From a bacterium (GTDB lineage: Bacteria > Actinomycetota > Acidimicrobiia > Acidimicrobiales > Bin134), in the NCBI GenBank assembly GCA_026708015.1, contig JAPOVT010000048.1, positions 132,112 to 196,111 of the forward strand: a DNA stretch of 64,000 nt, given 5' to 3'. The notes beneath the pieces are model-generated. The model worked only from the letters and a program-made list of their open reading frames with translations. It made no database searches and had not been told where the DNA came from. The translations under genes and the position numbers were made by a program. How positions within the stretch are numbered: position 1 is the stretch's first letter; every line of letters starts with the position of its first letter. Of the stretch, positions 2,201 through 44,799 are shown piece by piece.

Positions 2201-3735
2201 GCGGCCGAGTGATGCGCTGGCCCTTGGTGGTGATTGCTCTGGCGACGGTGATTGGGCTGGCGGTGGCCGACCGTGGCGATGACGACTCTGACGGGGGATT
2301 GGTCCAGCCCACCCGGGATGCAATCAGCGCGGCGCCCGGCCCGGACGCTGAAGGGAGTGTCTGGTACTGCTCCGAGGGAACCTCGCTTCCGGGCGAGTTC
2401 GCCGACCACACAGTAGTCGTGGCCAATCCGACCGGGGCTGCGGTCGCCGCGGAGATATCGGTCTTTCCGACGACGCCGATCGGAGCGGTATCGCCGCGGG
2501 CAAATCCCGAAAAGGTGCTGTTGAACGTGCCAGCACAGTCACGGTCCTCCCTCCGGCTCGCCGAGATTGTGGAGTCGCAATACACCGCCGCACTGGTGGA
2601 GGTGGACTCCGGCTCGGTTGTGGTGGAACAACGGGTGCAGGGGCCAACCGGCATGGACGTCGTACCTTGCGCCTCCCGCTCCTCAAAGACCTGGTACTTC
2701 GCAGCCGGATCGACTCGGCGGGATGCCCGCCTGGTCTTCACCCTCTTCAACCCCTTCCCAGAGAGGGCAGTGGTGAAGTTCACCTTCTCCACCGATGAGG
2801 GGCTCCGGGAACCGCATGCCCTCCGCGGCGTACTGGTTCCGGCCCGGTCGCTGGTAGTTGTGAATGCCACCGACTTGGTGCCTCGTTTCTCGTCAGTCTC
2901 CACCACCGTGGAGACGCAGGTTGGGCGGATTGTCGCCGGGAGGCTCCAGCTATTCGATGGCAGCGAGGGGCTGGAAGGGCTGACCGCCGGGCCGGGGGTG
3001 CCGGCAACCCGGACACAATGGGTCTTTCCCACTGGGCCCGCCGACGAGGGGGCGGCCGAGCACATTGTCTTGTACAACCCGACCGATCGGGAGGCGGCCG
3101 CCGACGTCAGGATTCGATTGGATCCCTCCGAAATCGGCGACGCATTGCCACCGTTTGAGCTGAGGGTGCCAGCCCAGCAGAGAGTGGCCCTCGTATTCGG
3201 GAGCCAGGGGTCCTACCCCCTGCCTTCCGCGCCCTTTGCCTATGGCGCAGGGGAATCTCTGGCCGAGGGTGTTGGGTTCTGGGCTGCTGTGCAGGTGTAC
3301 AACGGGGTTCCGATTGTGGCCGAGCGGGTAGTGGCCGGGTCGGCCGCATCGTCTCCTGCGGGGGTGGCGGCGACCGTCGGGACTCCGGTGCATTCTAGGA
3401 GCCACCTGATTGCGTGGAACGGGGCCGGGGACGCTGACGTGGCGTTGGTGGTGGTCAACGCCTCGCCCGATTCCATTGCCCAGGTAACCGTGTCGAAGGT
3501 TGCCGACGGGAGACTTACTCCCATCGCCCAGCTCAATCCCCGAGAGGTGTCCCCGCATAGCCGCCTGGTCGTCCCGGTTGACCGATTGACCGAAGGTGGC
3601 TCTTTCGCGCTGCTGGTGGAGGCCAGCCAGCCGGTGGTTGTCTCCCGTTCGCTGCTGGCTCGGACCGGGACTGGGATTGCCTCTGGCTTGTCGATCCCCT
3701 TGGATCCTCTCCACCTCGACCCGTCTGCGTTTTAG
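2197..3735 (+). CDS. Secreted or membrane-anchored hypothetical protein (DUF5719-like by recollection)
   Basis: 512-aa ORF with an N-terminal signal/anchor (RWPLVVIALATVIGLAVA). The GTGA overlap with the upstream membrane protein suggests an operon. The family assignment is from memory only. Confidence 0.6.
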   Translation: MSGRVMRWPLVVIALATVIGLAVADRGDDDSDGGLVQPTRDAISAAPGPDAEGSVWYCSEGTSLPGEFADHTVVVANPTGAAVAAEISVFPTTPIGAVSPRANPEKVLLNVPAQSRSSLRLAEIVESQYTAALVEVDSGSVVVEQRVQGPTGMDVVPCASRSSKTWYFAAGSTRRDARLVFTLFNPFPERAVVKFTFSTDEGLREPHALRGVLVPARSLVVVNATDLVPRFSSVSTTVETQVGRIVAGRLQLFDGSEGLEGLTAGPGVPATRTQWVFPTGPADEGAAEHIVLYNPTDREAAADVRIRLDPSEIGDALPPFELRVPAQQRVALVFGSQGSYPLPSAPFAYGAGESLAEGVGFWAAVQVYNGVPIVAERVVAGSAASSPAGVAATVGTPVHSRSHLIAWNGAGDADVALVVVNASPDSIAQVTVSKVADGRLTPIAQLNPREVSPHSRLVVPVDRLTEGGSFALLVEASQPVVVSRSLLARTGTGIASGLSIPLDPLHLDPSAF

Positions 3736-3768
3736 AAGGCACTCTCGGCCTGTCTACGATCCCCGGTT

Positions 3769-5430
3769 GTGGACGCCCCTGCTGAAGCCCTCCCCACCGT
3801 TAGAGACTTGGTGCTGAGGCGGGCTGACGACGACAGCCTGGCCGTGTTGTTTGAGGAAAAGCAGCACACCTACCGCGAGTTCACCGCCGGATGCGTCGCC
3901 CGCGCCCATCTTCTGCTGGGCGGCCGGTCGGAAGGGCCGTTCCATGTCGGTGCGCTTCTGGACAACGGTCCTGAGTACTCCATGCTGCTTGGCGGTGCGG
4001 CGGCGGCCGGGGCGGCGGTGGTTGGAATCAACCCCACCCGGCAGGGGGCGGAGTTGGCCCGCGACATCACCCATGCCGACTGCGGCATCATCATCACCGA
4101 GAGCCGCCATCGTGGGCTGCTGGACGGGCTGGATCTGGGCGCAGCCACCGGCCGGGTGCTGGATGTGGATTCCCCGGAGTGGGCCGCGGCCTTGGCCCCC
4201 TACGCCGGTGTCGAGCCCCCCGATGCCGACATCGACCCGCTGGCCCCCTATCTGTTGCTGTTCACCTCGGGCACCACCGGCGACCCCAAGGCGGCCATTT
4301 GTTCTCAGGCCCGTCTGGCTCGGATCGGCGAGGTGATCACCGAGATGCGGAAGCTGACGTCCGAAGACGTGTTCTACCAGGCCATGCCCATGTTCCACTC
4401 AAATGCGCTGATGGCGGGTTGGATTCCGTGTCTGACTGCGGGGGGAATTGCTGCCTTCCGACGCCGGTTCTCGGCGTCGGGTTTTCTGCCTGACGTGCGC
4501 CGGTTCGGCGTCACCTACTTCAACTACGTGGGCAAGCCCCTCACCTACATCCTGGCCACCCCCGAACAGCCCGACGATGCCGACAACACCTTGCGCATCG
4601 TGTTCGGCAACGAGGGCGCGGTGCATGACCTGGAGCGGTTCTCCCGCCGATTCGGGGTGCCGGTGGAGGACTCCTACGGCTCCACCGAGGGGGGCGTATC
4701 AGTGAGCCGCACCCCCGACACGCCCCCCAACGCATTGGGCCGGGCCGACGAGACGGTGAAGATCCTCAACCCCGATACCGGGGAGGAGGCGCCATTGGCC
4801 GTTTTCGACGAAACCGGCAAGCTGCTCAACCCCGATGAGGCCATCGGCGAACTGGTGTCTATGGTGTCGGCACCGACGTTCGAGGGCTATTGGAACAACT
4901 CCGAGGCCGATGAGGAGCGCACCCACGGCGGCATCTACTGGTCGGGCGATCTGGCCTATCGGGATGCCGAAGGGTTCGTGTACTTCGCGGGGCGGAACTT
5001 CGACTGGCTGCGGGTGGACGGGGAGAACTTCGCGGCGGCCCCGGTGGAGCGCATTTTGGTACGCCACCTCGATATCGACTTGGCTGCGGTCTACGCCGTG
5101 CCCAGCCCTTCGGTGGGCGACGAGGTGATGGCCGCGGTGGTGCGCCGCCCGGGAGCGCTCTTCGACCCGGAGGAGTTCGTCGAATTCTTGGCTGGCCAAG
5201 ACGATCTGGGCACCAAGTGGACGCCCCGCTATGTGCGCTGGGCCGACTCCTTGCCCCAGACCGAGACCAACAAAATCCTCAAGCGCACCCTGCGCCGGGA
5301 GCGCTGGGAGTCAGACGACGAGACCTGGGTGCGCGACGGGGAAGGCTATCGCCGGCTGGCTTCGGACGACGCCGACGCGATCCGAGCCGAGTTCGAGGCC
5401 CGGGGCCGTCTGTCGGTTTTGGACGTCTAG
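3769..5430 (+). CDS. AMP-dependent acyl-CoA synthetase/ligase (FadD-like)
   Basis: AMP-binding motif FTSGTTGDPKA. Length of 553 aa is typical for the family. GTG start. Confidence 0.9.
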   Translation: MDAPAEALPTVRDLVLRRADDDSLAVLFEEKQHTYREFTAGCVARAHLLLGGRSEGPFHVGALLDNGPEYSMLLGGAAAAGAAVVGINPTRQGAELARDITHADCGIIITESRHRGLLDGLDLGAATGRVLDVDSPEWAAALAPYAGVEPPDADIDPLAPYLLLFTSGTTGDPKAAICSQARLARIGEVITEMRKLTSEDVFYQAMPMFHSNALMAGWIPCLTAGGIAAFRRRFSASGFLPDVRRFGVTYFNYVGKPLTYILATPEQPDDADNTLRIVFGNEGAVHDLERFSRRFGVPVEDSYGSTEGGVSVSRTPDTPPNALGRADETVKILNPDTGEEAPLAVFDETGKLLNPDEAIGELVSMVSAPTFEGYWNNSEADEERTHGGIYWSGDLAYRDAEGFVYFAGRNFDWLRVDGENFAAAPVERILVRHLDIDLAAVYAVPSPSVGDEVMAAVVRRPGALFDPEEFVEFLAGQDDLGTKWTPRYVRWADSLPQTETNKILKRTLRRERWESDDETWVRDGEGYRRLASDDADAIRAEFEARGRLSVLDV

Positions 5431-5446
5431 CGGTGCTTGATCTCGG

Positions 5447-6178
5447 TTACCCGAGTGCGATTTCGGCGATGGCCCCGACGGTGGCCGCCACATGGGCCCG
5501 TTGGCTGGCGTCAATGGCCTCGTAGACCTCATTCATCCGGGCCGAGGTGATTTCCTCGGCCTGCCGATGTACCGCCTTGAGGGACTCGGGGTCGGGAAAC
5601 GGCTCGCTCCAGCCAAACATCTGGGCCTGCTGGGGTCCGGCCTGGACTACGACGGCCTCTACCGGGGCCATGCCCACTGCGCTCAGCGCATGTACATGAA
5701 ACCCGAAGCGCAGTTCCCTCAGAATTTGGAGAGACAAGGCGGTGGCCGCCGCCGGATCACCGGGCACCGGCATGGCCCGCCACCCGGCGTACAGCGCCTG
5801 GCTCATCGGCGCCGCGGTGTCGAACACGGTGCGGGTGGCGGCAGCGAATTCATCCAGTCCGTCAAGGTGAGCGAAGGTGTCGGCGGCCCACCGGCCCAGG
5901 CCGACTGCGAAGGCCGCGGCGGCATCAGACGGCGACCCCTGTTCTTTGGTCTGGTTCCAACCCATCTCGACAATGGCCGGATTGAACAGGGCAAATGCCG
6001 ATACCACCACGTCGGAGTCCACATCCCCCAGCACACCGCCTCGGCCTCCCACATATCCGGGCATTCCGGTGAATCCAGACTCGGCCATCGTCTCCCGCAC
6101 AACATCGGCAAAGAAATAGCTGCGCCCCAGGGCGCCAACGGGGGTAGCGGTGGCCGCGGCCACTTCCTCTGGAGTCAT
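5447..6178 (-). CDS. Conserved hypothetical protein (possibly SCO6745/SalK-like helical protein)
   Basis: 243-aa ORF with normal amino acid composition, tightly packed between neighbouring genes. The family call is weak. Confidence 0.55.
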   Translation of the reverse strand: MTPEEVAAATATPVGALGRSYFFADVVRETMAESGFTGMPGYVGGRGGVLGDVDSDVVVSAFALFNPAIVEMGWNQTKEQGSPSDAAAAFAVGLGRWAADTFAHLDGLDEFAAATRTVFDTAAPMSQALYAGWRAMPVPGDPAAATALSLQILRELRFGFHVHALSAVGMAPVEAVVVQAGPQQAQMFGWSEPFPDPESLKAVHRQAEEITSARMNEVYEAIDASQRAHVAATVGAIAEIALG

Positions 6179-8750: not shown

Positions 8751-9491
8751 ATGGAAGAGCACCCCTGTAGCCTGAATGGAGTTGTGGAATCTGCCGTCCG
8801 GCTCCGGGCCGCTGTGACGTTATTGGGGCGGTTTCCCGCCTTGGCCGGAGTTGATCTCGACATCTCGCCGGGGGAGATCGTCCTGCTCAAAGGGCCGAAC
8901 GGGGCGGGCAAGACCACCCTGTTGCGGTTGTGCGCCGGATTGTGCTCGCTGGCCTCGGGTCAAGGTTGGGTGCTGGGCCACGATCTCAGTGAAGAACGCC
9001 GCATGGTGCGGCGCCGGGTGGCGCTATTGGGCCATCGCACCGGGCTGTATGACGATCTCACCGTGGCCGAGAACGTGGACTTCTGGGCTCGGGCCGCCGG
9101 AGCCAGTCGCCAAGATGTCGACGAGGCCATGGAGCGACTCTCACTCACCGGGCGTCTAGCCGAAACTCGGGTGGGCCGGCTTTCGGCCGGGCAGCGCCGG
9201 CGGGCCTCCATCGCCTCGCTGGTGGTGCGCCGGCCCGAGCTGTGGTTGCTGGACGAGCCCCATGCCGGGCTGGACCAGCAGACCCGCGACACCGTGGACT
9301 CACTGGTGCGGGGCGCGGCGGCGGCCGGGGCCACCGTGGTGCTGGCCACCCACGAACTGGAGCGCATCGCAGTGCTGGAGCCCAGGGTGGTGAGCGTGGT
9401 GGGCGGGATGGTGCGCACCGGGGATGAGCCGGCTGATCCGCAGAGCCCGAACACCCCCTCTGGCTCGGAGGATGACCGCCGTGTTTCGTGA
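8751..9491 (+). CDS. ccmA: Heme exporter ATP-binding protein CcmA (ABC ATPase)
   Basis: Walker A GPNGAGKTTLL, ABC signature LSAGQRRR and Walker B LWLLDEP. It is the first gene of the ccm cluster. The start is uncertain: ATG at 8751 is preferred, but the ORF opens at TTG 8670. Confidence 0.85.
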   Translation: MEEHPCSLNGVVESAVRLRAAVTLLGRFPALAGVDLDISPGEIVLLKGPNGAGKTTLLRLCAGLCSLASGQGWVLGHDLSEERRMVRRRVALLGHRTGLYDDLTVAENVDFWARAAGASRQDVDEAMERLSLTGRLAETRVGRLSAGQRRRASIASLVVRRPELWLLDEPHAGLDQQTRDTVDSLVRGAAAAGATVVLATHELERIAVLEPRVVSVVGGMVRTGDEPADPQSPNTPSGSEDDRRVS

Positions 9492-10149
9492 CATATGGCT
9501 GATCGCGGGCAAAGACCTGCGGATCGAGTTGCGCTCTCGGGTCGGCCTCAACCAAATCGTGCCGTTTGCCGTCACGGTTTTGGTGCTGTTCGCCTTCGCG
9601 CTTGACACCGACCAGGAGGCCCTGCGCACCTATGCCCCCGGGCTGTTCTGGTTGACGGTGCTGTTGGCCTCGCTGCTGGCCATTGGCCGCTCGTTCGCAG
9701 TGGACTTGGCCGACGGAGCCGCCGACCGTCTGCTCTTGTCAGGCATCGACCCCATCGCGGTGTTCGGGGGCAAGGCCGCAGCTATCGCCGTGCAGCTGGT
9801 GGTGCTGGAGGTGCTGTTGGGAGCGGGGGTGGTGCTGCTGTTCGACGTGACCGTGCATAGGTATGGCCTTTTGGTGTGCGCCGGGCTGGCTGCGGCCGCC
9901 GGGGTGGCCACCGCCGGCACCCTCTATGGGGCGCTGGTTGCCGGACTTGGAGTGCGCGAGACCCTGCTGCCGGTGCTGTTATTGCCGGTGGTGGCCCCGG
10001 TGCTCATCGGTGCCACTCGGGCGTTTCAGGACGCGTTCGGCGTGGCCGGTGCCGAAGGTTGGGCCTGGTTGGGCCTCTTGGCCGGTTTCGCCGCAATCTA
10101 TGGGGTATTCGGGGCCCTGAGCTACGGGGCTCTCTTGGAGGAAGCGTGA
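9472..10149 (+). CDS. ccmB: Heme exporter membrane protein CcmB
   Basis: Multi-TM protein between ccmA and ccmC. The start at MTAVFRDIWLIAGKDLRIE overlaps the end of ccmA. Confidence 0.8.
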   Translation: MTAVFRDIWLIAGKDLRIELRSRVGLNQIVPFAVTVLVLFAFALDTDQEALRTYAPGLFWLTVLLASLLAIGRSFAVDLADGAADRLLLSGIDPIAVFGGKAAAIAVQLVVLEVLLGAGVVLLFDVTVHRYGLLVCAGLAAAAGVATAGTLYGALVAGLGVRETLLPVLLLPVVAPVLIGATRAFQDAFGVAGAEGWAWLGLLAGFAAIYGVFGALSYGALLEEA

Positions 10150-37956: not shown

Positions 37957-38649
37957 CTAGGTGGATGGGGGCAGTGAGGGTGGGAGGCTGTTGACGATTC
38001 GGGCGGTCTCGACGGAGAGGTGGATGAGGCGGCGGAGGTGTCGGATGAGGTTGAAGGGTTCGTCGGCCCAGGCGTGCCATCCGTTGGGATCGTCAGTGAT
38101 GCCGCTGGGCTTGTCGTGCTTGTGGCGGAGGCTGTCGATGGCCCAGTCGAGCGGTGTGCGGCCCGACACGGTGTATTCGTGAGCCTCCTCAGGAATGTCG
38201 ATGAGCAGGCAGCGAGGGTTGATCTCCAACGTTGAGCGGTCGGTCTCCTTGCCTTGTTTGGCCCACCGCATCTTCGTCTCGATGCGGTAGGCGGCGGGGT
38301 CGGCTTCGCCCTCGTCGGGCTGGCCGTCCACCAGGCAGACCACGGGGTGCTCGTCGACAGTCTCATAGTTGACGTGCAGGTCCATGAGCGCCCGTCCCGC
38401 GGCCCTAAACGCCTCGAAGTCGGGGGCGAGGGGCACCCTGGGCAGGTTGCGCTGGAGGTCGTGCTTGTACCGCTCCCGCCAGTCGGGTGCGTGCATCACC
38501 CCATAGAGGTACTCCCAGATGTCGTCTTTGGTGATGTGGCTGCCGTAGCGGGCATGGAACTGCTCCAGGCACCAGTCGGTGATGTTGTCAGTGTCGGCGG
38601 GTTCCGGGCTGGGCAGGCTGAGGCCAAGGGTGGGGGCGTTGTCGGTCAT
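37957..38649 (-). CDS. Type ISP restriction-modification enzyme, detached C-terminal (target-recognition) domain fragment
   Basis: NITDWCLEQFHARYG..DIWEYLYGVMHAPDWRERYKHDLQRNLPRVPLAPDFEAFRAAGRALMDLHVNYE resembles the Type ISP C-terminal domain (PF18135, from memory). It is in the same frame as the large ORF but separated from it by stops. Confidence 0.75.
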   Translation of the reverse strand: MTDNAPTLGLSLPSPEPADTDNITDWCLEQFHARYGSHITKDDIWEYLYGVMHAPDWRERYKHDLQRNLPRVPLAPDFEAFRAAGRALMDLHVNYETVDEHPVVCLVDGQPDEGEADPAAYRIETKMRWAKQGKETDRSTLEINPRCLLIDIPEEAHEYTVSGRTPLDWAIDSLRHKHDKPSGITDDPNGWHAWADEPFNLIRHLRRLIHLSVETARIVNSLPPSLPPST

Positions 38650-39255
38650 TTGCGTCGGGGGATGACTCGGTTTGCGGGATCAACAGCGTGCAGGTCGGAC
38701 AGCAGGCCTGTGGCCAATGCCGCGAACCTGGTGCGGTTCGACGGGCTGCTCAACAGGATCGCCTCTGTTTGGGCATTGCCCGGGTTTGCTGGCCCGGCCC
38801 CATCAAGTGCAGGTCGGGCAGCGATCCCGTCGCCAGCACCCCGAAGATCGCCATATTCGACGGCCCCGCTATCAAGACTGCATTCCATCTCTGGTCCGCC
38901 TTGGGATGATCCTGCATCCTCCATCGAGTGTGTTGAGGTCGCTGATTGGCTTGGCTGAGAGGACCGAGAATCTTGTCCGGCTGGACGGACTGCTGACCAT
39001 GATGGGGGGGTCATCGCACTCGGCGGGGGAGTGCCCTTGTCTGCCTCGACCCCGAGATCATGGCCAGATCGGGCAGCGTTGCTGTGGCCAGTGCTTGGAA
39101 GGTCATGTTGGAAGTTCCCGAGATCAAGATTGTCTCCGTCGGGGGACGGCTCGGGTGGGTTGGTTGGTTCCGTTGGCGCTGAGATCCATTGGGCAGTTGC
39201 TGGCGATTGCCCCGAAAATTGCCCTGTTGTTGGGTGAGGCGATGAGGATGGTGTT
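38646..39255 (-). repeat. Array of five tandem diverged copies of a ~40-codon coding module, each in a different frame from its neighbour
   Basis: Module starts lie at 39249, 39130, 39003, 38878 and 38759 (spacings 119/127/125/119 nt). Stops lie at 39124, 39011, 38872, 38750 and 38646. Consensus: ILIxSPSNxxxFxxLATxxLPDLxxxxxxxxRxxPRR. Confidence 0.85.
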
Positions 39256-42200
39256 CTCTCTCTCTCTCTCTCTCTCTCTCGGGAACATGGCGGAGACGGT
39301 CTTGACGGAGGAAAGGATGCGGGGGTCCTCATAGAGCCAGAGTTTGGTGAACGGGCGGTAGAGCACTTCGCGGATGCGGGACTCGTCGAAAACGATCTCC
39401 TCGTTCTTGCGGAGCGACTGCTTGAGGGTGTCGGTCCACTTGATCGAGTCGAGTTCAACGTTTTCGGTGACATCAGCCAGGGACTCGCCCAATTCGTAGA
39501 GCATTCGAGCCTCTTCGTAGGAGTCGATGAGTTGCTCCACGCGACGGATCAGCTCTTGTCTGCTGAACGAGTAGACGTAGACGTCGCAGTTCGTCGCTAG
39601 CCCCAAGGCATGGTCCTTGATTGCGGTGTCTTCTCTTCGGCCTCTGGAACCGATTGCACAAACCGACACCAGTTCGCTGAAGGTTCCGTCGGTGAGGTTT
39701 ACCCAGTCGTGGCCCTGGTTGATGGGGACGGTCTGGAACTGGTCGCTGGTCACATTGTCGAGGGTGGCGAGCCAGTCGAGCTTCTGAGGGAGCTTGCTGT
39801 ATTCGGGAACTGTTGCGTAGTGCAGGGTGGCTGGCTCGTTTGGGTCTTTTTCGGGGTTGCGGACGAGCACGGTGATCTGTACGCCGTTGCGGGAGCCAGC
39901 GCCAAAGATCTTGTCGCCCTCACGCCTGAACTCATCGCCCGATTTCATGGCGTCGCCCAGCAGGTTGACTACGTAGATGTCGGTGAATTCGTCGCGCAGT
40001 GAGGCCCTCATACCGGCGAGCGATGTGCCGTTGGACAGTGAGTTGGGGTGGATGAAGGCCAACACCTTGCCGGAGTCTTGCTGGCTGACTGCATTGGCCA
40101 ATCGGTCGGAGGCCCATCGGATGGCCTCCACGTAGAGATTGCCAGAGGACTTGCCGGCACCGCGCCCGGTGATCTGCTTGTGCCGCTTTCCGTAGGTGTC
40201 GCGTACGCGTTCTTCGATATGGCCGTATTCAAGGTTGGGGTTGTCGTCGCCAGCGGACTTTTGGCCGGCGGACCAAGGAGGATTGCCCACGATCACTTGG
40301 ATTGGCGCCTTGTTCTGGCGCTTGGCTCGGTCGGAGTTCTCGGCCATGTATTGGTCGAGGCCGAGCTGTTGGTGCATTTTCTCGTCGTCCATGAGAAACG
40401 TGTCGGTGAGCACGATGCCTTCGAACGGCGTGTAGCCGTGGACGCCATCGAACGCGCCTCTCTCGTCGGCAGCTTCTTCGATTTTCAGGGCGGCGATGTA
40501 GTAGGCGAGCAAGACGATCTCGTTGGCGTGCAGTTCGGTGGTGTATTTGCGGAGCAGATCATCGCTGCGGATCAGGTACTCGCCGTTGGCGCCCTTCAAG
40601 GTGAGCAAGCGGTTGATGAAGGTGCCGGTGCCGGTGAAGGGGTCGAGCACGTGAACATCTTCGGCGGTGAGGCCTTTTCCGAATTCTTGGCGGCACACCG
40701 CGTCTACAGAGCGCAGCACGAAGTCGACCAATTCCACGGGTGTGTACACGATGCCGAGCCGCTTCACGGTGGCGGCCATGGCCGCTTGGAAAAAGCCGTC
40801 GTACACCTCGCGAAGAACGTCGAGTTTCTGGGCGCCGGTAAGCGCGCCCTCGAAGGCATCGGCCATGCGGGCGTAAGCCCGAGTGAGGGGTCGTCGCTCG
40901 TGCTCAAAGGCGATGTTTTTGGCGGCGAATTCGTCCAGGAGCCGGTTGATCTGCTGCGAGACGGGGTTTTGGGTGGCGAATTGCGACCGCTCGAAGAAGG
41001 CGTCGAAGACCGGGATGGTCACAACGTGTTGAGCCACCATCTCTTGGGCATCGGCATCGGTGATCTGCGGACCTACCGTGCGCCGCATTGAGGTGGTGAA
41101 TCGGTCGAATGCGGTGGCGAGTTCGGGGAACTCCAGCAGCACTGCCTGCACTCGTCGCTGGACCTTCACACAAACGTCAGCGGCCATCTTTCCCCAGTGG
41201 GGCCACATCTGGCGGTCGCCGCAGACGTCTACCAGCTTGGAGGCGATCTTGTCGTCGAGGGCCATCTGAAGCTGGACGGCCTCGCCCACGCCTGTGCTGG
41301 TCTCGGTTTCGTCGTCGGCCTCCGGGGGGCTTGTGCTCTTGGTGCGATCGAGTACTCGTATGGGAGCCTTCTGCTTGGCCACCTCGACGTTGTTTACCCA
41401 AAAGTTGACTCGCTCGTCGTGCGACCGCAGCGCCCGGACTACGTCCCACACCACTTTGAAGTCGCTGCCGTTCAACACCGACTCAGAGGAAATGGTCTCG
41501 TCATCGGCCACGACCACCGGAATGACCACGTAGCCGCGTCTTTTGCCGGGCGCGGTTCGCATCGCTCGACCCACCGCCTGGGTGATGTCGATCTTGGAGG
41601 TGCGCCGGTCCAAGAAGATGACGGCATCGAGAGCGGGCACATCAACGCCTTCGGTGAGGACTCGGGCATTCGTCACCACTCGGCACAGGCGGGGGTCGGC
41701 GTTCGGGTCGCTGCGGTGGTCTCTGAGGGCGCTGATGTGCATGTGGCGGGTGACAGCCGCGGTGGAGCCGTCAACGTGCTGCACGTCGAGCTGGAGGTAC
41801 TCGCGGCCGCGGTCTTCCTCTCCCACGTTCTCGACCACCTTCGGCCACATCTCGGCGGTGAGCTGCGACGCCTTGACCCTGTTGGTGAAGGCGATGGCAG
41901 TGCGCGCGTGGGTGTCGTTGGCCATGTCGATCTGTCCGGTGTGGCGGTTGCCGCCCGCGCTGACCGTAAGCGGGTCGGCTAGGGCATCCCAGCAGCCGGC
42001 CAGTTTCACGTAGTCGTCGAAGGCGAGTCCCGTATCGGCGTGGCTTATCTCGGAGTCGGACTCGTAGGTGCGGCGCAGGTCGCGGTCGGAAACCGCGATG
42101 ACCACCACCTCGTAATCCGAAAGCCAGCCGCTGTCGACAGCCTCTGCGAACTCCATGTTGTAGAGCACGGGGCCGTACACCGTCTCGTCGTCCATCGAGA

Positions 42201-43401
42201 AGCTGTCGACTTCATTGGCCTCGGCCTTCTGCTTGGCCTTCTCGGTGAACACCCGTGGAGTGGCGGTCATATAGAGCCGGCGGTGCCCCCTCACATGGTT
42301 GTTGTCGTGAACCATACGGAAACCGGATTTGTCTTCGCCGGTGTTCTGTTCGAACTTGGCGGATTCGACGCCGGTTGTGCGATGGGCTTCATCGCAGATG
42401 ATGAGATCGAATTCAGCGGCGCCCTGCTCTTGGTTCTCTGCGACCTTGGGGAGGGATTGGTAGGTGCAGAACACCACGGCCATGACTTCGGGATCGGCAA
42501 GACGATCGAGTTCTGGGCGGAGCCTGGCGGAATCGGTGGTTACCGGCATGGCCAGCTCGGTGAGGTCGTCGGCAAGGTCGGCCTTCTTGGCGGAGCGGCG
42601 ACCAGAAGTGGGATCGGAGCAAACCCCGAGATAGCGGTGGCGGAGCGACTTCTGCGCGGCCCACTCGCGCATCGTCTGACCCATCAGGGCAATCGAGGGC
42701 ACCACACACAGCACCCGCCCGCCTTTGCCGGCCAGCTTCTCGGCGATCCACAGCGCCACCACTGACTTGCCGGTGCCACAGGGCAGGACCATCTGGCCCC
42801 GGCTGTCGGAATTGTTGAGGCCTTCTACAACCGCCCGCACAGCATCGTGTTGATAGGGGCGCGGCGCGTATCTTTTCGCATTGAATTCGAGGGCCCCAGG
42901 CCGGTCGAGGAAGTCCTCCCAGCGAACATCCCAACCGTTGATGGTGCTCCGGTCGAGCACTTCGCAGCGCGGCGTGGCCTTCTCGATCTTTCGCCAAGCG
43001 TTGTCGGTCAGTCCGCCGGTGGCCACCAGCAGACGGGCGGAAAAGTCGTCGGTGCCCGACTCCGCCAAGAACGAGTCCACCGCGCTGGTGGGAACCGTGG
43101 AGGTGTCCTCGTACGCCTTGCACTGGATAGCGCACAGCCCGCCGCCGAAGTCGTCGCTCTGCTCGGCAACCAGATCGATGCCGCAATCTGGGCCGAACCC
43201 CCTTTTGCGGCGATCGGGCCACTCCGACCAGCGCCAAACCTTCTCGAAGCGAGTCTCCCCGTACTCCCCAGGGTGCTTTTGCAGCGCCTCGGCTATCAGG
43301 CGCTCAAACAATTGACCCCGAAGCTGGGGCTTGTCTGGCCCCCGCTCCTTCAAAAGGGTGATTACATCCCGATGGCTACCTGGGGGGGGGGGGGGGGTCA
43401 T
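39124..43401 (-). CDS. Type ISP-like restriction-modification enzyme (Mrr-like nuclease, SF2 helicase-like ATPase, gamma-class N6-adenine methyltransferase), truncated before the C-terminal domain
   Basis: PD-(D/E)xK-like GIDLVAE..AIQCK. Helicase motifs PCGTGKS, DEAH (IICDEAHRTTG), TATP and QAVGRAMR. Methylase motifs DPFTGTGTF and NPPW (VGNPPWSAGQ). The start was chosen at ATG 43401 (MTPPPPPGSHRD). Confidence 0.88.
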   Translation of the reverse strand: MTPPPPPGSHRDVITLLKERGPDKPQLRGQLFERLIAEALQKHPGEYGETRFEKVWRWSEWPDRRKRGFGPDCGIDLVAEQSDDFGGGLCAIQCKAYEDTSTVPTSAVDSFLAESGTDDFSARLLVATGGLTDNAWRKIEKATPRCEVLDRSTINGWDVRWEDFLDRPGALEFNAKRYAPRPYQHDAVRAVVEGLNNSDSRGQMVLPCGTGKSVVALWIAEKLAGKGGRVLCVVPSIALMGQTMREWAAQKSLRHRYLGVCSDPTSGRRSAKKADLADDLTELAMPVTTDSARLRPELDRLADPEVMAVVFCTYQSLPKVAENQEQGAAEFDLIICDEAHRTTGVESAKFEQNTGEDKSGFRMVHDNNHVRGHRRLYMTATPRVFTEKAKQKAEANEVDSFSMDDETVYGPVLYNMEFAEAVDSGWLSDYEVVVIAVSDRDLRRTYESDSEISHADTGLAFDDYVKLAGCWDALADPLTVSAGGNRHTGQIDMANDTHARTAIAFTNRVKASQLTAEMWPKVVENVGEEDRGREYLQLDVQHVDGSTAAVTRHMHISALRDHRSDPNADPRLCRVVTNARVLTEGVDVPALDAVIFLDRRTSKIDITQAVGRAMRTAPGKRRGYVVIPVVVADDETISSESVLNGSDFKVVWDVVRALRSHDERVNFWVNNVEVAKQKAPIRVLDRTKSTSPPEADDETETSTGVGEAVQLQMALDDKIASKLVDVCGDRQMWPHWGKMAADVCVKVQRRVQAVLLEFPELATAFDRFTTSMRRTVGPQITDADAQEMVAQHVVTIPVFDAFFERSQFATQNPVSQQINRLLDEFAAKNIAFEHERRPLTRAYARMADAFEGALTGAQKLDVLREVYDGFFQAAMAATVKRLGIVYTPVELVDFVLRSVDAVCRQEFGKGLTAEDVHVLDPFTGTGTFINRLLTLKGANGEYLIRSDDLLRKYTTELHANEIVLLAYYIAALKIEEAADERGAFDGVHGYTPFEGIVLTDTFLMDDEKMHQQLGLDQYMAENSDRAKRQNKAPIQVIVGNPPWSAGQKSAGDDNPNLEYGHIEERVRDTYGKRHKQITGRGAGKSSGNLYVEAIRWASDRLANAVSQQDSGKVLAFIHPNSLSNGTSLAGMRASLRDEFTDIYVVNLLGDAMKSGDEFRREGDKIFGAGSRNGVQITVLVRNPEKDPNEPATLHYATVPEYSKLPQKLDWLATLDNVTSDQFQTVPINQGHDWVNLTDGTFSELVSVCAIGSRGRREDTAIKDHALGLATNCDVYVYSFSRQELIRRVEQLIDSYEEARMLYELGESLADVTENVELDSIKWTDTLKQSLRKNEEIVFDESRIREVLYRPFTKLWLYEDPRILSSVKTVSAMFPRERERERENTILIASPNNRAIFGAIASNCPMDLSANGTNQPTRAVPRRRQS
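39255..39280 (-). repeat. (GA)13 dinucleotide microsatellite inside the Type ISP CDS, encoding RERERERE
   Basis: Thirteen consecutive TC units counted on the plus strand from 39255 to 39280, immediately 5' of module 1. Confidence 0.95.
43382..43397 (-). repeat. C16 homopolymer (G16 on the plus strand) in codons 2-7 of the Type ISP gene
   Basis: Sixteen G counted from 43382 to 43397. The minus strand reads ATG ACC CCC CCC CCC CCC CCA. Confidence 0.9.
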
Positions 43402-43557
43402 TGCCGAGACATGGTAGTCAGAAGCGTCATATTGCTCTGAATTGCTAGCCGGGAGTTGGCACGAACCTGAACGAAGGCGCAAGGCGCAGGTCAACCCGCT
43501 ACCGCCTCTAAAGCGTTGCCCCTCCGCCGGGATAGGGGAGTACACTGGCCGCTGCTT

Positions 43558-43632
43558 TCGGGAGTGGTGTAATTGGCAACACACCGGGTTCTGGTCCCGA
43601 TATTGGGGGTTCGAGTCCTCCCTCCCGAGCCA
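43558..43632 (+). tRNA. tRNA-Gln (anticodon CUG)
   Basis: Manual cloverleaf. Acceptor TCGGGAG/CTCCCGA (U1:A72) with discriminator G73 and encoded CCA. D stem GTGT/ACAC. Anticodon stem CCGGG/CCCGA (one mismatch) with loop TTCTGGT. T arm GGGGG-TTCGAGT-CCTCC. Confidence 0.85.
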
Positions 43633-43659: not shown

Positions 43660-44799
43660 TCAAACGCCCCAGATGTGGAACAGGTCGGGGGTGGCGAACC
43701 AGTGGCGGGTGCGGCCGGGGGTGGAGGTCGGTACGTCGATGGGGGACAGGATGGCGCGGGAGGCGAGCGCAGACAGGGCGGTGCGGGCGCTGCGCTCGCT
43801 GGTGCCGAGCAGATCGGCGACGTCGCCTGCACTCAACAGCGGGTGGGCGGGCAGATAGGAGAGCAGCGCTCGTGCCGAGTGGTCGGCTCGCAGATCGGCG
43901 ACTGCCTCTTCCCATTGAGCTAGTAGCGCGCTGGTTTGATCGATGATCTGGTGGGTGGTGGAAGCAGCCCTTTGAGCGGTTTCGGCGAACCACTTGACCC
44001 ACGGTTCGAGGGTTCCCTGTTCGTAGAGTCGGAGGCCGGATAGGTAGCCGCCGGGGTCACGGACGATGGCCATGCTGACGGGGACGGTGGATCGAACGGT
44101 GGTCTCTCGCCGTCGCAGGGTTCGGCTGATCAGCGCCCGTCCGAGGCGACCGTTGCCGTCGCCGTAGGGGTGGATGGCCTCGAACTGGGCGTGGATCACC
44201 GCCGCGTGGGAGACCGGGTCGAGGTCTTCGGGGGTGGCGTTGGCGAAGGCGATCAGGTCGTCGATCAGCCGCGGTATCTCCGCGGGCGGCGGGGGGACGT
44301 AGGCCGCGTCGAGAGGGGAGCTGCCGCCCACCCAGCCCATCGCGGGGCGGAACACTCCGACCATGTCGGGGGGAAGATTCCCATGCTGCATGAGCTGTCG
44401 ATGCCATCGGTGCAGCGCGTCGACGGTCAGTGGCTCATGGGCGGTTTCCAAAGCCCGGTCGATCACTACCAGGTTGGCGGCCACCCAGCCCGCGGTGCCG
44501 CCCGCGCTGGTTCGCTCCGCAATCAGCACGGATTCGATGGGCTCGCGCAGCCCCTCGATGCCCGAGGATGCCACTCCCTCGTTGCGCAGTAGGAGCCTGG
44601 CCATAGCTTCCCAACGGTCGGGCAGCCGGGCGTCGGCGAGCCGCAAGGCAGCGCAGGCCCGCTCGCTGGCCCGTGCAGCAGAGGCGGACAGCTCCATGGG
44701 GCGCTCTCGAAGAAGAGCCGGGACCCACGCTTGGACCGGTCGGCCATTCCAGTCGATCTCAACCGAAAATCCCGAATAGCCTTCCGAATCTGCGGCCAT
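43660..44799 (-). CDS. Fic family protein (AMPylase-type) with an N-terminal inhibitory motif and a C-terminal wHTH-like tail
   Basis: Fic motif HPYGDGNGRLGR. SSGIEG matches the (S/T)xxxE(G/N) auto-inhibition motif. The stop lies 28 nt from the tRNA-Gln 3' end. Confidence 0.88.
   Translation of the reverse strand: MAADSEGYSGFSVEIDWNGRPVQAWVPALLRERPMELSASAARASERACAALRLADARLPDRWEAMARLLLRNEGVASSGIEGLREPIESVLIAERTSAGGTAGWVAANLVVIDRALETAHEPLTVDALHRWHRQLMQHGNLPPDMVGVFRPAMGWVGGSSPLDAAYVPPPPAEIPRLIDDLIAFANATPEDLDPVSHAAVIHAQFEAIHPYGDGNGRLGRALISRTLRRRETTVRSTVPVSMAIVRDPGGYLSGLRLYEQGTLEPWVKWFAETAQRAASTTHQIIDQTSALLAQWEEAVADLRADHSARALLSYLPAHPLLSAGDVADLLGTSERSARTALSALASRAILSPIDVPTSTPGRTRHWFATPDLFHIWGV

Follow-up and report, generated by a model that had tools for sequence, protein, structure and literature searches.

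A 5' poly-C tract and frame-dependent recognition cassettes point to a multiply switched Type ISP restriction-modification gene in an uncultivated Acidimicrobiia bacterium

Introduction

Repeat-driven ON/OFF switching of restriction-modification (RM) systems of Types I and III is well known (reviewed in PMC12707154). For the phasevarions of Neisseria, Haemophilus, Helicobacter and others, two sources (PMC5909438, PMC7383803) describe Type III mod and Type I hsdM/hsdS genes in which slippage at a repeat inside the open reading frame (ORF), with a unit that is not a multiple of 3 nt, toggles a methyltransferase or a restriction activity. Here we describe a candidate switch of the same kind in a 64,000-nt stretch of a GenBank assembly (GCA_026708015.1, contig JAPOVT010000048.1, positions 132,112 to 196,111 of the forward strand; hereafter the window, in whose coordinates all positions are given unless another locus is named), where a gene related to the Type ISP enzymes begins with a run of 16 cytosines and ends in an array of recognition cassettes that appear to be chosen by reading frame. 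The known phasevarions belong to host-adapted pathogens and are of Type I or Type III, whereas the present gene is of Type ISP.

The closest precedent is that of the Type IIG genes JHP1272 (Hpy99XIV) and HP1353-HP1354 of H. pylori (Krebes et al. 2014, PMC3936762). Like the gene in the window, these are fused RM genes with two homopolymer tracts, and the first H. pylori tract also encodes PPPP. The H. pylori enzymes are MmeI-like and lack a helicase, unlike the Type ISP enzyme described here, and their second switch chooses between two states, in which an extra C-terminal recognition domain is present or absent; the window, by comparison, appears to hold two selectors in series that act on five cassettes (up to seven in relatives) and use all three frames, with out-of-frame cassettes as linkers and the recognition domain spread over two polypeptides. 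Methylome sequencing demonstrated the H. pylori switch, whereas the one proposed here is deduced from sequence.

The Type ISP enzymes LlaGI and LlaBIII (PDB 5FFJ, 4XQK; Kulkarni et al. 2016, PMC4872093) have the same domain order and catalytic motifs as our gene. Both are single polypeptides with one copy of the segment that corresponds to a cassette and with no repeats, whereas in the window this segment occurs five-fold in different frames and the domain is split after it.

A choice among more than two specificities is also found at the pneumococcal hsdS locus, SpnD39III/ivr. This is likewise one locus with alternative recognition modules (up to six alleles; PMC7557576, PMC7394358) that switches at random. 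Switching of hsdS is a recombinase-driven inversion of whole modules, whereas in the window a frame change at repeats would swap a 40-aa loop cassette, and we saw no recombinase or inverted repeats at the locus. In the open-access literature we found no paper that links Type ISP enzymes to repeat phase variation or describes a multi-cassette layout in three frames.

Results

A long homopolymer at the start of a Type ISP-like gene

The gene is a minus-strand ORF of 1425 codons (the head ORF), whose translation contains an Mrr nuclease, a superfamily 2 (SF2) helicase, the ISP coupler, an N6-adenine methyltransferase with an NPPW motif, the first part of a recognition domain and the first of the cassettes, A. 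Pfam matches fell in the order Mrr_cat_2, ResIII/DEAD, Helicase_C, ISP_coupler, N6_Mtase (weak) and Type_ISP_C, and the C-terminal 458 aa matched LlaGI (PDB 5FFJ) with an E-value of 8e-59 by phmmer. This is the domain set and order of a Type ISP enzyme (Mrr-type nuclease, SF2 helicase, coupler, gamma-class N6-adenine methyltransferase, C-terminal recognition domain), and the catalytic motifs GTGKS, DEAH and NPPW are all present, in keeping with the class (nuclease D...QxK/ExK, helicase Walker A and DEAH, methyltransferase NPPW/Y); in an alignment of 30 sequences, D72, D76, Q93, K95, the GTGKS residues, DEAH and N1040-P-P-W1043 were invariant. Type ISP enzymes are single polypeptides, and here the recognition domain is divided between two ORFs; a split derivative of Type ISP is the most fitting description of the enzyme. 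A preliminary description of this locus had presented the 1425-aa frame as the Type ISP gene, and the length of the ORF stands, but it is not the whole enzyme, the remainder of the recognition domain lying in a separate ORF of 230 aa (the tail ORF).

The closest proteins came from metagenome-assembled genomes (MAGs) of Acidimicrobiia, and the closest genome records carry the names Candidatus Poriferisocius and Candidatus Spongiisociaceae. Since these names suggest sponge-associated lineages, the host is apparently a sponge-associated, uncultivated Acidimicrobiia bacterium.

At the start of the gene the minus strand reads caATG ACC CCC CCC CCC CCC CCA GGT, which translates as MTPPPPPG, and we counted exactly 16 G on the plus strand from 43382 to 43397. 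The count and the translation both bear out the preliminary description, as do the products of altered tracts: the product with C15 is MTPPPPQVAIGM and that with C17 is MTPPPPPR, such that a change of one nucleotide in either direction stops translation after 8-12 codons and abolishes the frame. As in other contingency loci, this is a long, uninterrupted repeat inside an ORF, with a unit not divisible by three and with length changes that shift the frame. It is the sole homopolymer of at least 8 nt in the window, the next longest being four runs of 7. Under a model of independent, identically distributed bases with the composition of the window (65.5% GC) the expected number of runs of at least 16 was 0.0019, and that of G or C runs of at least 8 was about 12, against the single one observed. 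Given this shortfall, homopolymers are strongly depleted and generally avoided in the window, and the C16 tract is an extreme outlier.

The tract is conserved in position and variable in length

We fetched the DNA of related loci and compared their 5' ends; all tract lengths are assembly consensus calls. An ATG followed by a long C run was found in every close lineage, and the gene begins with ATGA-Cn in about ten lineages (C10-C22), a start shared by orthologues of 85-95% identity and by three lineages of 51-54% protein identity. Tract lengths among the relatives were C10, 11, 13, 15, 16, 17, 19 and 22. The ATG was in frame with the gene in six alleles, namely those of the window (ATGA-C16-AGG), L086 and L087 (ATGA-C15-AAGG), L088 (ATGA-C22), L093 (ATGA-C10) and, among the lineages of 51-54% identity, L091 (C19) and L092 (C13). 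It was out of frame in five: L001, L084 and L085 (ATGA-C16-AAGG, with an extra A), L002 (ATGA-C17), L003 (ATGCT-C17, 78 nt further upstream), L094 (ATGA-C11) and L011 (C15), the last again from the 51-54% group. More than 60 homologues from other phyla had no such 5' tract, and an exact-pattern scan of Joint Genome Institute (JGI) metagenome contigs for the tract flanks gave no match.

The assemblies L001, L084, L085, L086 and L087 carry the same allele, with 0-1 substitutions over 4430-5560 aligned nt; they derive from three or more samples, and one of them, the GenBank MAG L087, is identical to L086. Within this set, indels occurred only at three repeats: the 5' poly-C (C15/C16), the GA repeat (9, 11 or 12 units) and an internal poly-C (C12/C15). 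As would be expected of a contingency locus, the tract is polymorphic among close genomes while its flanks are conserved, in consensus assemblies. The preliminary description had proposed a comparison of tract lengths among related genomes as a check, and the outcome, a variable length at a conserved position, supports its ON/OFF reading; its caution that the length might be mis-called also holds, for any single allele, all lengths being those of an assembled consensus.

The gene appears to start at the ATG before the tract

Each of the six upstream contexts, those of the window (TACCAT) and of L002, L003, L011, L091 and L092 (where TAAAAT, TATAAT, TAATGT, TAGTGT and TAGAGT occur), has a -10-like hexamer of the form TANNNT upstream of the ATG, at a distance of 6 or 9 nt, and none of the six has a Shine-Dalgarno sequence before the ATG. 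A scan for the sigma-70 consensus found no promoter at the locus, and a terminator scan likewise gave nothing useful. The arrangement suggests a leaderless or near-leaderless mRNA with the ATG at or near its 5' end.

In the out-of-frame alleles, the frame of the gene continues without a stop back to the tract and has no start codon; therefore only a change in tract length can join the gene to the ATG. Gene callers start these alleles at a TTG at codon 17 ('MKERG'). We found no evidence of a translation start downstream of the tract, as the ATG is conserved and the TTG has no visible ribosome-binding site, and we took translation to begin at ATG 43401 and the tract to be an ON/OFF switch, predicted to be ON in the window.

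A 10-codon upstream ORF on the minus strand (ATGACGCTTCTGACTACCATGTCTCGGCAATGA; ATG 43430 to TGA 43398) overlaps the main ATG, and we considered translational coupling between the two. We dropped this idea, since only the closest lineages share the small ORF, which also contains the likely -10 hexamer; the ORF (43398-43430) is probably located upstream of the transcription start. The second Type ISP gene of L008 carries, in the region of ~9440-9516, a G27 run located upstream of a TTG start (MPHLEETL...) by about 10 nt and bounded on either side by stops in the frame of the gene; this run, in an untranslated leader, may be a different kind of switch.

Five cassettes follow two predicted frame selectors

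After the region of Loop V the gene runs into a (GA)13 tract, and behind it the minus strand encodes five diverged copies of a segment of about 40 aa with the pattern ILI-SPSN--F--LA----DL------R-IPRR, in frames 1, 3, 1, 3 and 2 (cassettes A to E; Table 1), each with a stop within 1-7 codons after it. The whole system occupies 37957-39280 (-). We found the array by three-frame translation and then with a custom hidden Markov model; Tandem Repeats Finder missed it, the copies being too diverged. Loss of 2 nt from the GA tract, or an equivalent change in it, would bring cassette B into frame. Behind its stop lies an internal poly-C, which is C7 here versus C10-C19 in relatives and is probably decayed and less mutable in the window. 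An ATGA-Cn sequence at the junction of cassettes B and C was considered as an internal start and rejected, as the internal repeats follow the stop of the previous cassette and this ATG is not conserved.

In the preliminary description the GA tract was a second independent switch of the same gene. The tract is indeed present, but its predicted role is that of a frame selector among the five C-terminal cassettes rather than a second ON/OFF switch, and there is a third repeat, the internal poly-C. The second repeat would thus change the translated recognition sequence, as indicated by the layout of the array, the differing ends of related genes and the coverage of Loop VI, all described below.

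Table 1. Positions in the window of the head gene, its repeats, the cassettes and the tail ORF, listed along the minus strand.
Feature	Coordinates	Strand	Remarks
TACCAT, -10-like TANNNT hexamer	43411..43416	-	9 nt upstream of ATG; from sequence comparison
Head ORF, 1425 aa	39124..43401	-	stop 39124-39126; from Pfam and alignment to LlaGI (PDB 5FFJ)
ATG start codon of head ORF	43399..43401	-	'ATGA' directly before the tract here and in most related lineages
C16 homopolymer (G16 on + strand)	43382..43397	-	head-gene codons 2-7; in frame, predicted ON in the window
(GA)13, predicted first frame selector	39255..39280	-	after Loop V region, before cassette A
Cassette A, NTILIASPNNRAIFGAIASNCPMDLSANGTNQPTRAVPRR	39136..39255	-	in frame with head; stop 39124-39126
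Cassette B, ETILISGTSNMTFQALATATLPDLAMISGSRQTRALPRR	39020..39136	-	one frame off A; stop 39011-39013
C7, internal poly-C, predicted second frame selector	39004..39010	-	directly after cassette B stop
Cassette C, PIMVSSPSSRTRFSVLSAKPISDLNTLDGGCRIIPRR	38896..39006	-	
Cassette D, NAVLIAGPSNMAIFGVLATGSLPDLHLMGPGQQTRAMPKQ	38765..38884	-	orthologue in frame in P0002, P0128 and P0129
Cassette E, EAILLSSPSNRTRFAALATGLLSDLHAVDPANRVIPRR	38652..38765	-	stop TGA 38646-38648 overlaps tail ATG (ATGA)
Out-of-frame linker peptide (example), HHPHRLTQQQGNFRGNRQQLPNGSQR			
Tail ORF, 230 aa	37957..38649	-	Type_ISP_C positions 166-341, E = 1.4e-47

The layout recurs in related arrays

We compared 19 non-redundant related arrays with 97 cassettes in all. 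An array is laid out as a repeat and two cassettes, a further repeat and two cassettes, and so on to a last repeat with three cassettes, such that k repeats go with 2k+1 cassettes: two arrays had one repeat and three cassettes, 12 had two and five, and three had three and seven, while the remaining two of the 19 lacked one cassette. From each cassette to the next within a block the frame changes by -1, and a choice of frame at the repeats gives access to 96 of the 97 cassettes. The repeat units were 1, 2, 4 or 5 nt long (mono-, di-, tetra- and pentanucleotides), never a multiple of three, and the internal repeats start directly after the stop of the preceding cassette.

A cassette that is skipped would have to be read through in another frame, and this pass-through frame was free of stops in 92 of the 97 cassettes, compared with 51% of windows of equal length in an alternative frame of the head gene. 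Expressed per 100 codons, the pass-through frames held 0.15 stops against 2.3-2.9 in the alternative frames of the head gene, a 15- to 20-fold depletion, and the peptides they encode are polar (hydrophobicity 0.13 versus 0.20-0.22). Differences between orthologous cassettes, sorted by the first, second and third position of the cassette's own codons, numbered 130, 43 and 259 and are thus mostly at third positions. The ratio of non-synonymous to synonymous polymorphism (pN/pS) was 0.21 when the cassettes were read in their own frame, as against 1.0 and 3.7 for the two other frames, and the cassettes are under purifying selection.

Cassettes of one array had a median identity of 41% to each other and of 79% to their best match in another genome; the cassettes of an array are distinct types that recur across genomes. 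Near-identical genes were found with different ends, P0124 ending in the first cassette (A') and P0002, P0128 and P0129 in the fourth (D). One relative (L093, 1501-6117), with C10 at its start, has a GA repeat of only about three units and no internal poly-C, and it reads straight into cassette D; it appears to be a switch system that has decayed and become locked, fixed on that cassette.

A cassette covers Loop VI of the recognition domain

For comparison with the LlaGI structure we used the construct LlaGI-deltaN, which lacks residues 2-165, such that position i of the 5FFJ chain is residue i+164 of the full-length protein. Along this alignment, the segment YRPFTKLWLYEDPRILSSV of the head corresponds to LlaGI 1310-1328 and reaches Loop V, (GA)13 falls at about 1338-1342 and the cassette at about 1343-1385. 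The cassette thus spans a beta-hairpin (1347-1358) and Loop VI (1365-1374) of LlaGI, and the 'DL' conserved in every cassette aligns with D1366-M1367, the residue after it with H1368. In LlaGI, H1368 reads the G at position +3 of the target while G1372 and Q1373 read the partner C, and in LlaBIII, N1360 at the equivalent place reads A (PMC4872093). The residues at the H1368 position in the cassettes here are S, A, N, H and H, and over all arrays they were H (37), C (20), A (15), S (7), N (6), K (4) and L (3). By this homology, frame choice would likely change which base is read at +3.

A separate ORF encodes the rest of the recognition domain

The tail ORF lies about 475 nt downstream of the head ORF and in the same frame. 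Positions 4-151 of the Type_ISP_C profile fall in the head ORF and positions 166-341 in the tail ORF, which also matched LlaGI residues 1392-1564 (E = 2e-29); this region consists of conserved helices stacked against the core sheet and of a 'guide' subdomain without base contacts. A fused tail was found in none of the top 120 homologous proteins, 97 of which end at most 12 aa after a cassette, whereas head and tail form one ORF in 58 of the 62 loci without arrays. If all three frames have to end once their cassette is read, a fusion to the rest of the domain is impossible. In six lineages the tail has its own GGAGG-like Shine-Dalgarno sequence (~7 nt upstream) and ATG.

In five other loci (L005, L008, L009, L015 and L083) a tail ORF lies directly upstream of the head (~3100-4020), with none downstream on the strand searched, and L006 and L008 each have two Type ISP genes in tandem. 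The four exceptions among the 62 array-less loci, together with L034, are Acidobacteriota and Dehalococcoidia MAGs with a repeat and two alternative cassettes. In L029 (7987), L034 (7894), L041 (7900) and L053 (8145), which are Bryobacterales, Vicinamibacterales and Dehalococcoidia MAGs, a (GACA)20, (GGAC)15, (GGAC)8 or C10 repeat precedes two cassettes of a different sequence type (VICVPGVGA.KPFS...DL...); the tetranucleotide versions are from Acidobacteriota MAGs and the C10 version is from one Dehalococcoidia MAG. In L029 and L034 the frame of the first cassette continues through the second, out of frame, into a fused tail.

Neighbouring genes

A tRNA-Gln(CTG) gene (43558-43632, +) lies 156 nt upstream of ATG 43401, followed by a Fic/DOC gene (43660-44799, -). 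L088 lacks the Fic gene at this position, and the neighbourhood is thus variable. In other relatives (L001, L084, L086 and L089) the tail is followed by genes for a DUF222/HNH endonuclease and for a class-I tRNA synthetase (Pfam tRNA-synt_1c).

Discussion

The C16 tract is, in our view, probably a genuine and heritable ON/OFF switch driven by slipped-strand mispairing, as the preliminary description had suggested; its conservation, its variation in length, the occurrence of in-frame and out-of-frame alleles and the confinement of indels to the repeats all support such a contingency tract. With less assurance, we lean towards the view that in vivo the locus works as a genetic multiplexer, in which a master switch is followed by a serial three-way choice of frame among 2k+1 Loop VI cassettes (five here, 3-7 in relatives).

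The proposed mechanism would run as follows. Slipped-strand mispairing during replication would alter the length of C16, and we infer that this happens within populations. Tracts that differ from C16 by multiples of 3 nt would keep the ATG in frame and the gene ON, and translation from tracts of other lengths would stop after 8-12 codons, leaving it OFF; since one polypeptide carries both activities, the OFF state would abolish restriction and methylation together. Ribosomes that pass (GA)13 in the first frame would read cassette A and stop, those in the second would read A out of frame as a stop-free polar linker and then cassette B, and those in the third would pass through to the internal poly-C, where three frames again would lead to C, D or E. 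Every path would stop right after its cassette, and skipped cassettes would be translated as stop-free, disordered linkers. The split of the domain would let each path end in this way, with the 230-aa tail made separately and assembling with the head, and the cassette in use would set the target specificity.

Several points weigh against parts of this scheme. The 19 arrays share ancestry, and the counts drawn from them are not independent. The tract lengths are all consensus calls, and homopolymers of 15-22 nt are error-prone in both short and long reads, which makes the ON or OFF state of any single allele uncertain; the window, L089 and L090 are all C16, but they are probably from one sample. 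The internal selector is only C7 in the window and is probably much less mutable than its longer counterparts, and the loss of two repeats in L093 shows that such switches can decay. The change of specificity is deduced from homology to one structurally characterized loop. There is no Shine-Dalgarno sequence before the tail in the window (38646-38652) or in L001 (7694-7700), where the tail ATG overlaps only the stop of cassette E; a deletion of about 30 nt may have removed the Shine-Dalgarno sequence in this lineage, and the scheme does not account for production of the tail in the current state, with cassette A in frame. Finally, OFF may not be silent, as frameshift suppression has been reported at (AG)n in a mod gene (bioRxiv 10.64898/2026.04.01.715767).

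This last report also bears on the alternative that the tract acts at the level of RNA or protein, with RNA polymerase slippage on C16 or (GA)13, or EF-P-dependent stalling on MTPPPPPG, giving tuned expression or, through mRNAs of mixed frame in each cell, a constant mix of isoforms instead of clonal ON/OFF states. The tract begins at about +5 of a probably leaderless transcript and encodes five consecutive prolines, both of which would suit such an effect. Long homopolymers are known sites of transcriptional slippage, although the effect is as a rule weaker for G/C runs than for A/T runs. Against this, differences in DNA length are the sole indels between otherwise identical alleles, which indicates that slippage is inherited at least as far as the assembly consensus, and an effect on RNA or protein could add to phase variation in the DNA instead of standing in for it; we think it unlikely as the explanation of the tract.

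Improbable to a further degree is that the length differences are artefacts of sequencing or assembly, in which case a fixed, in-frame tract would go with constitutive expression. Homopolymers of this length are hard to call on every platform, several of the relatives are long-read assemblies (judging by contig names), and all three copies of the window allele are C16. The less error-prone GA repeat, however, also differs (9, 11 and 12 units) among the same near-identical short-read assemblies, where sequencing errors are an unlikely cause; a long uninterrupted tract maintained in lineages of only 51% identity is hard to explain without selection for mutability, and the architecture of cassettes and frames would be useless without frameshifting.

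We also consider it very unlikely that translation starts downstream of the tract, for example at the codon-17 TTG, which would place the tract in a 5' untranslated region where it could at most modulate expression. The choice of this TTG by gene callers in out-of-frame alleles, and the G27 in the untranslated leader of the second L008 gene, would fit such a start, but the TTG has no Shine-Dalgarno sequence and would truncate a conserved N-terminal helix ('DVITLL', which aligns with 'DFYLAL' in distant homologues). In addition, an ATG stands directly before the tract in every lineage, with the -10-like hexamer at its usual 6 or 9 nt, and in all alleles the frame of the gene runs open downstream of the tract. 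It is hardly credible that the locus is instead a pseudogene in decay, in which tandem duplications and frameshifts have broken a Type ISP gene and the repeats are neutral debris: stops and frame changes do interrupt the recognition domain, the internal poly-C is short here and L093 has lost two repeats, but the own-frame pN/pS of the cassettes, the depletion of stops in the pass-through frames, the recurrence of the 2k+1 layout over 19 arrays, a head intact over 1425 codons with invariant catalytic motifs, and an intact tail ORF with its own Shine-Dalgarno sequence in relatives all argue otherwise.

Homopolymer switches of RM genes are well known in a few pathogens, and the present candidate extends them to Type ISP and to uncultivated Acidimicrobiia. 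The downstream cassette system matters more than the 5' switch. Gene callers mis-annotate such loci as truncated or fragmented 'helicases', and mixed methylomes could confound the binning of such MAGs by methylation motif. The natural cassettes form a ready set of Loop VI variants for decoding or engineering recognition by Type ISP enzymes. If the logic read from the sequence holds, the array would be a compact, recombinase-free means of choosing among 3-7 target specificities with the use of all three frames, and a clonal population would make many RM specificities that differ at one target position.

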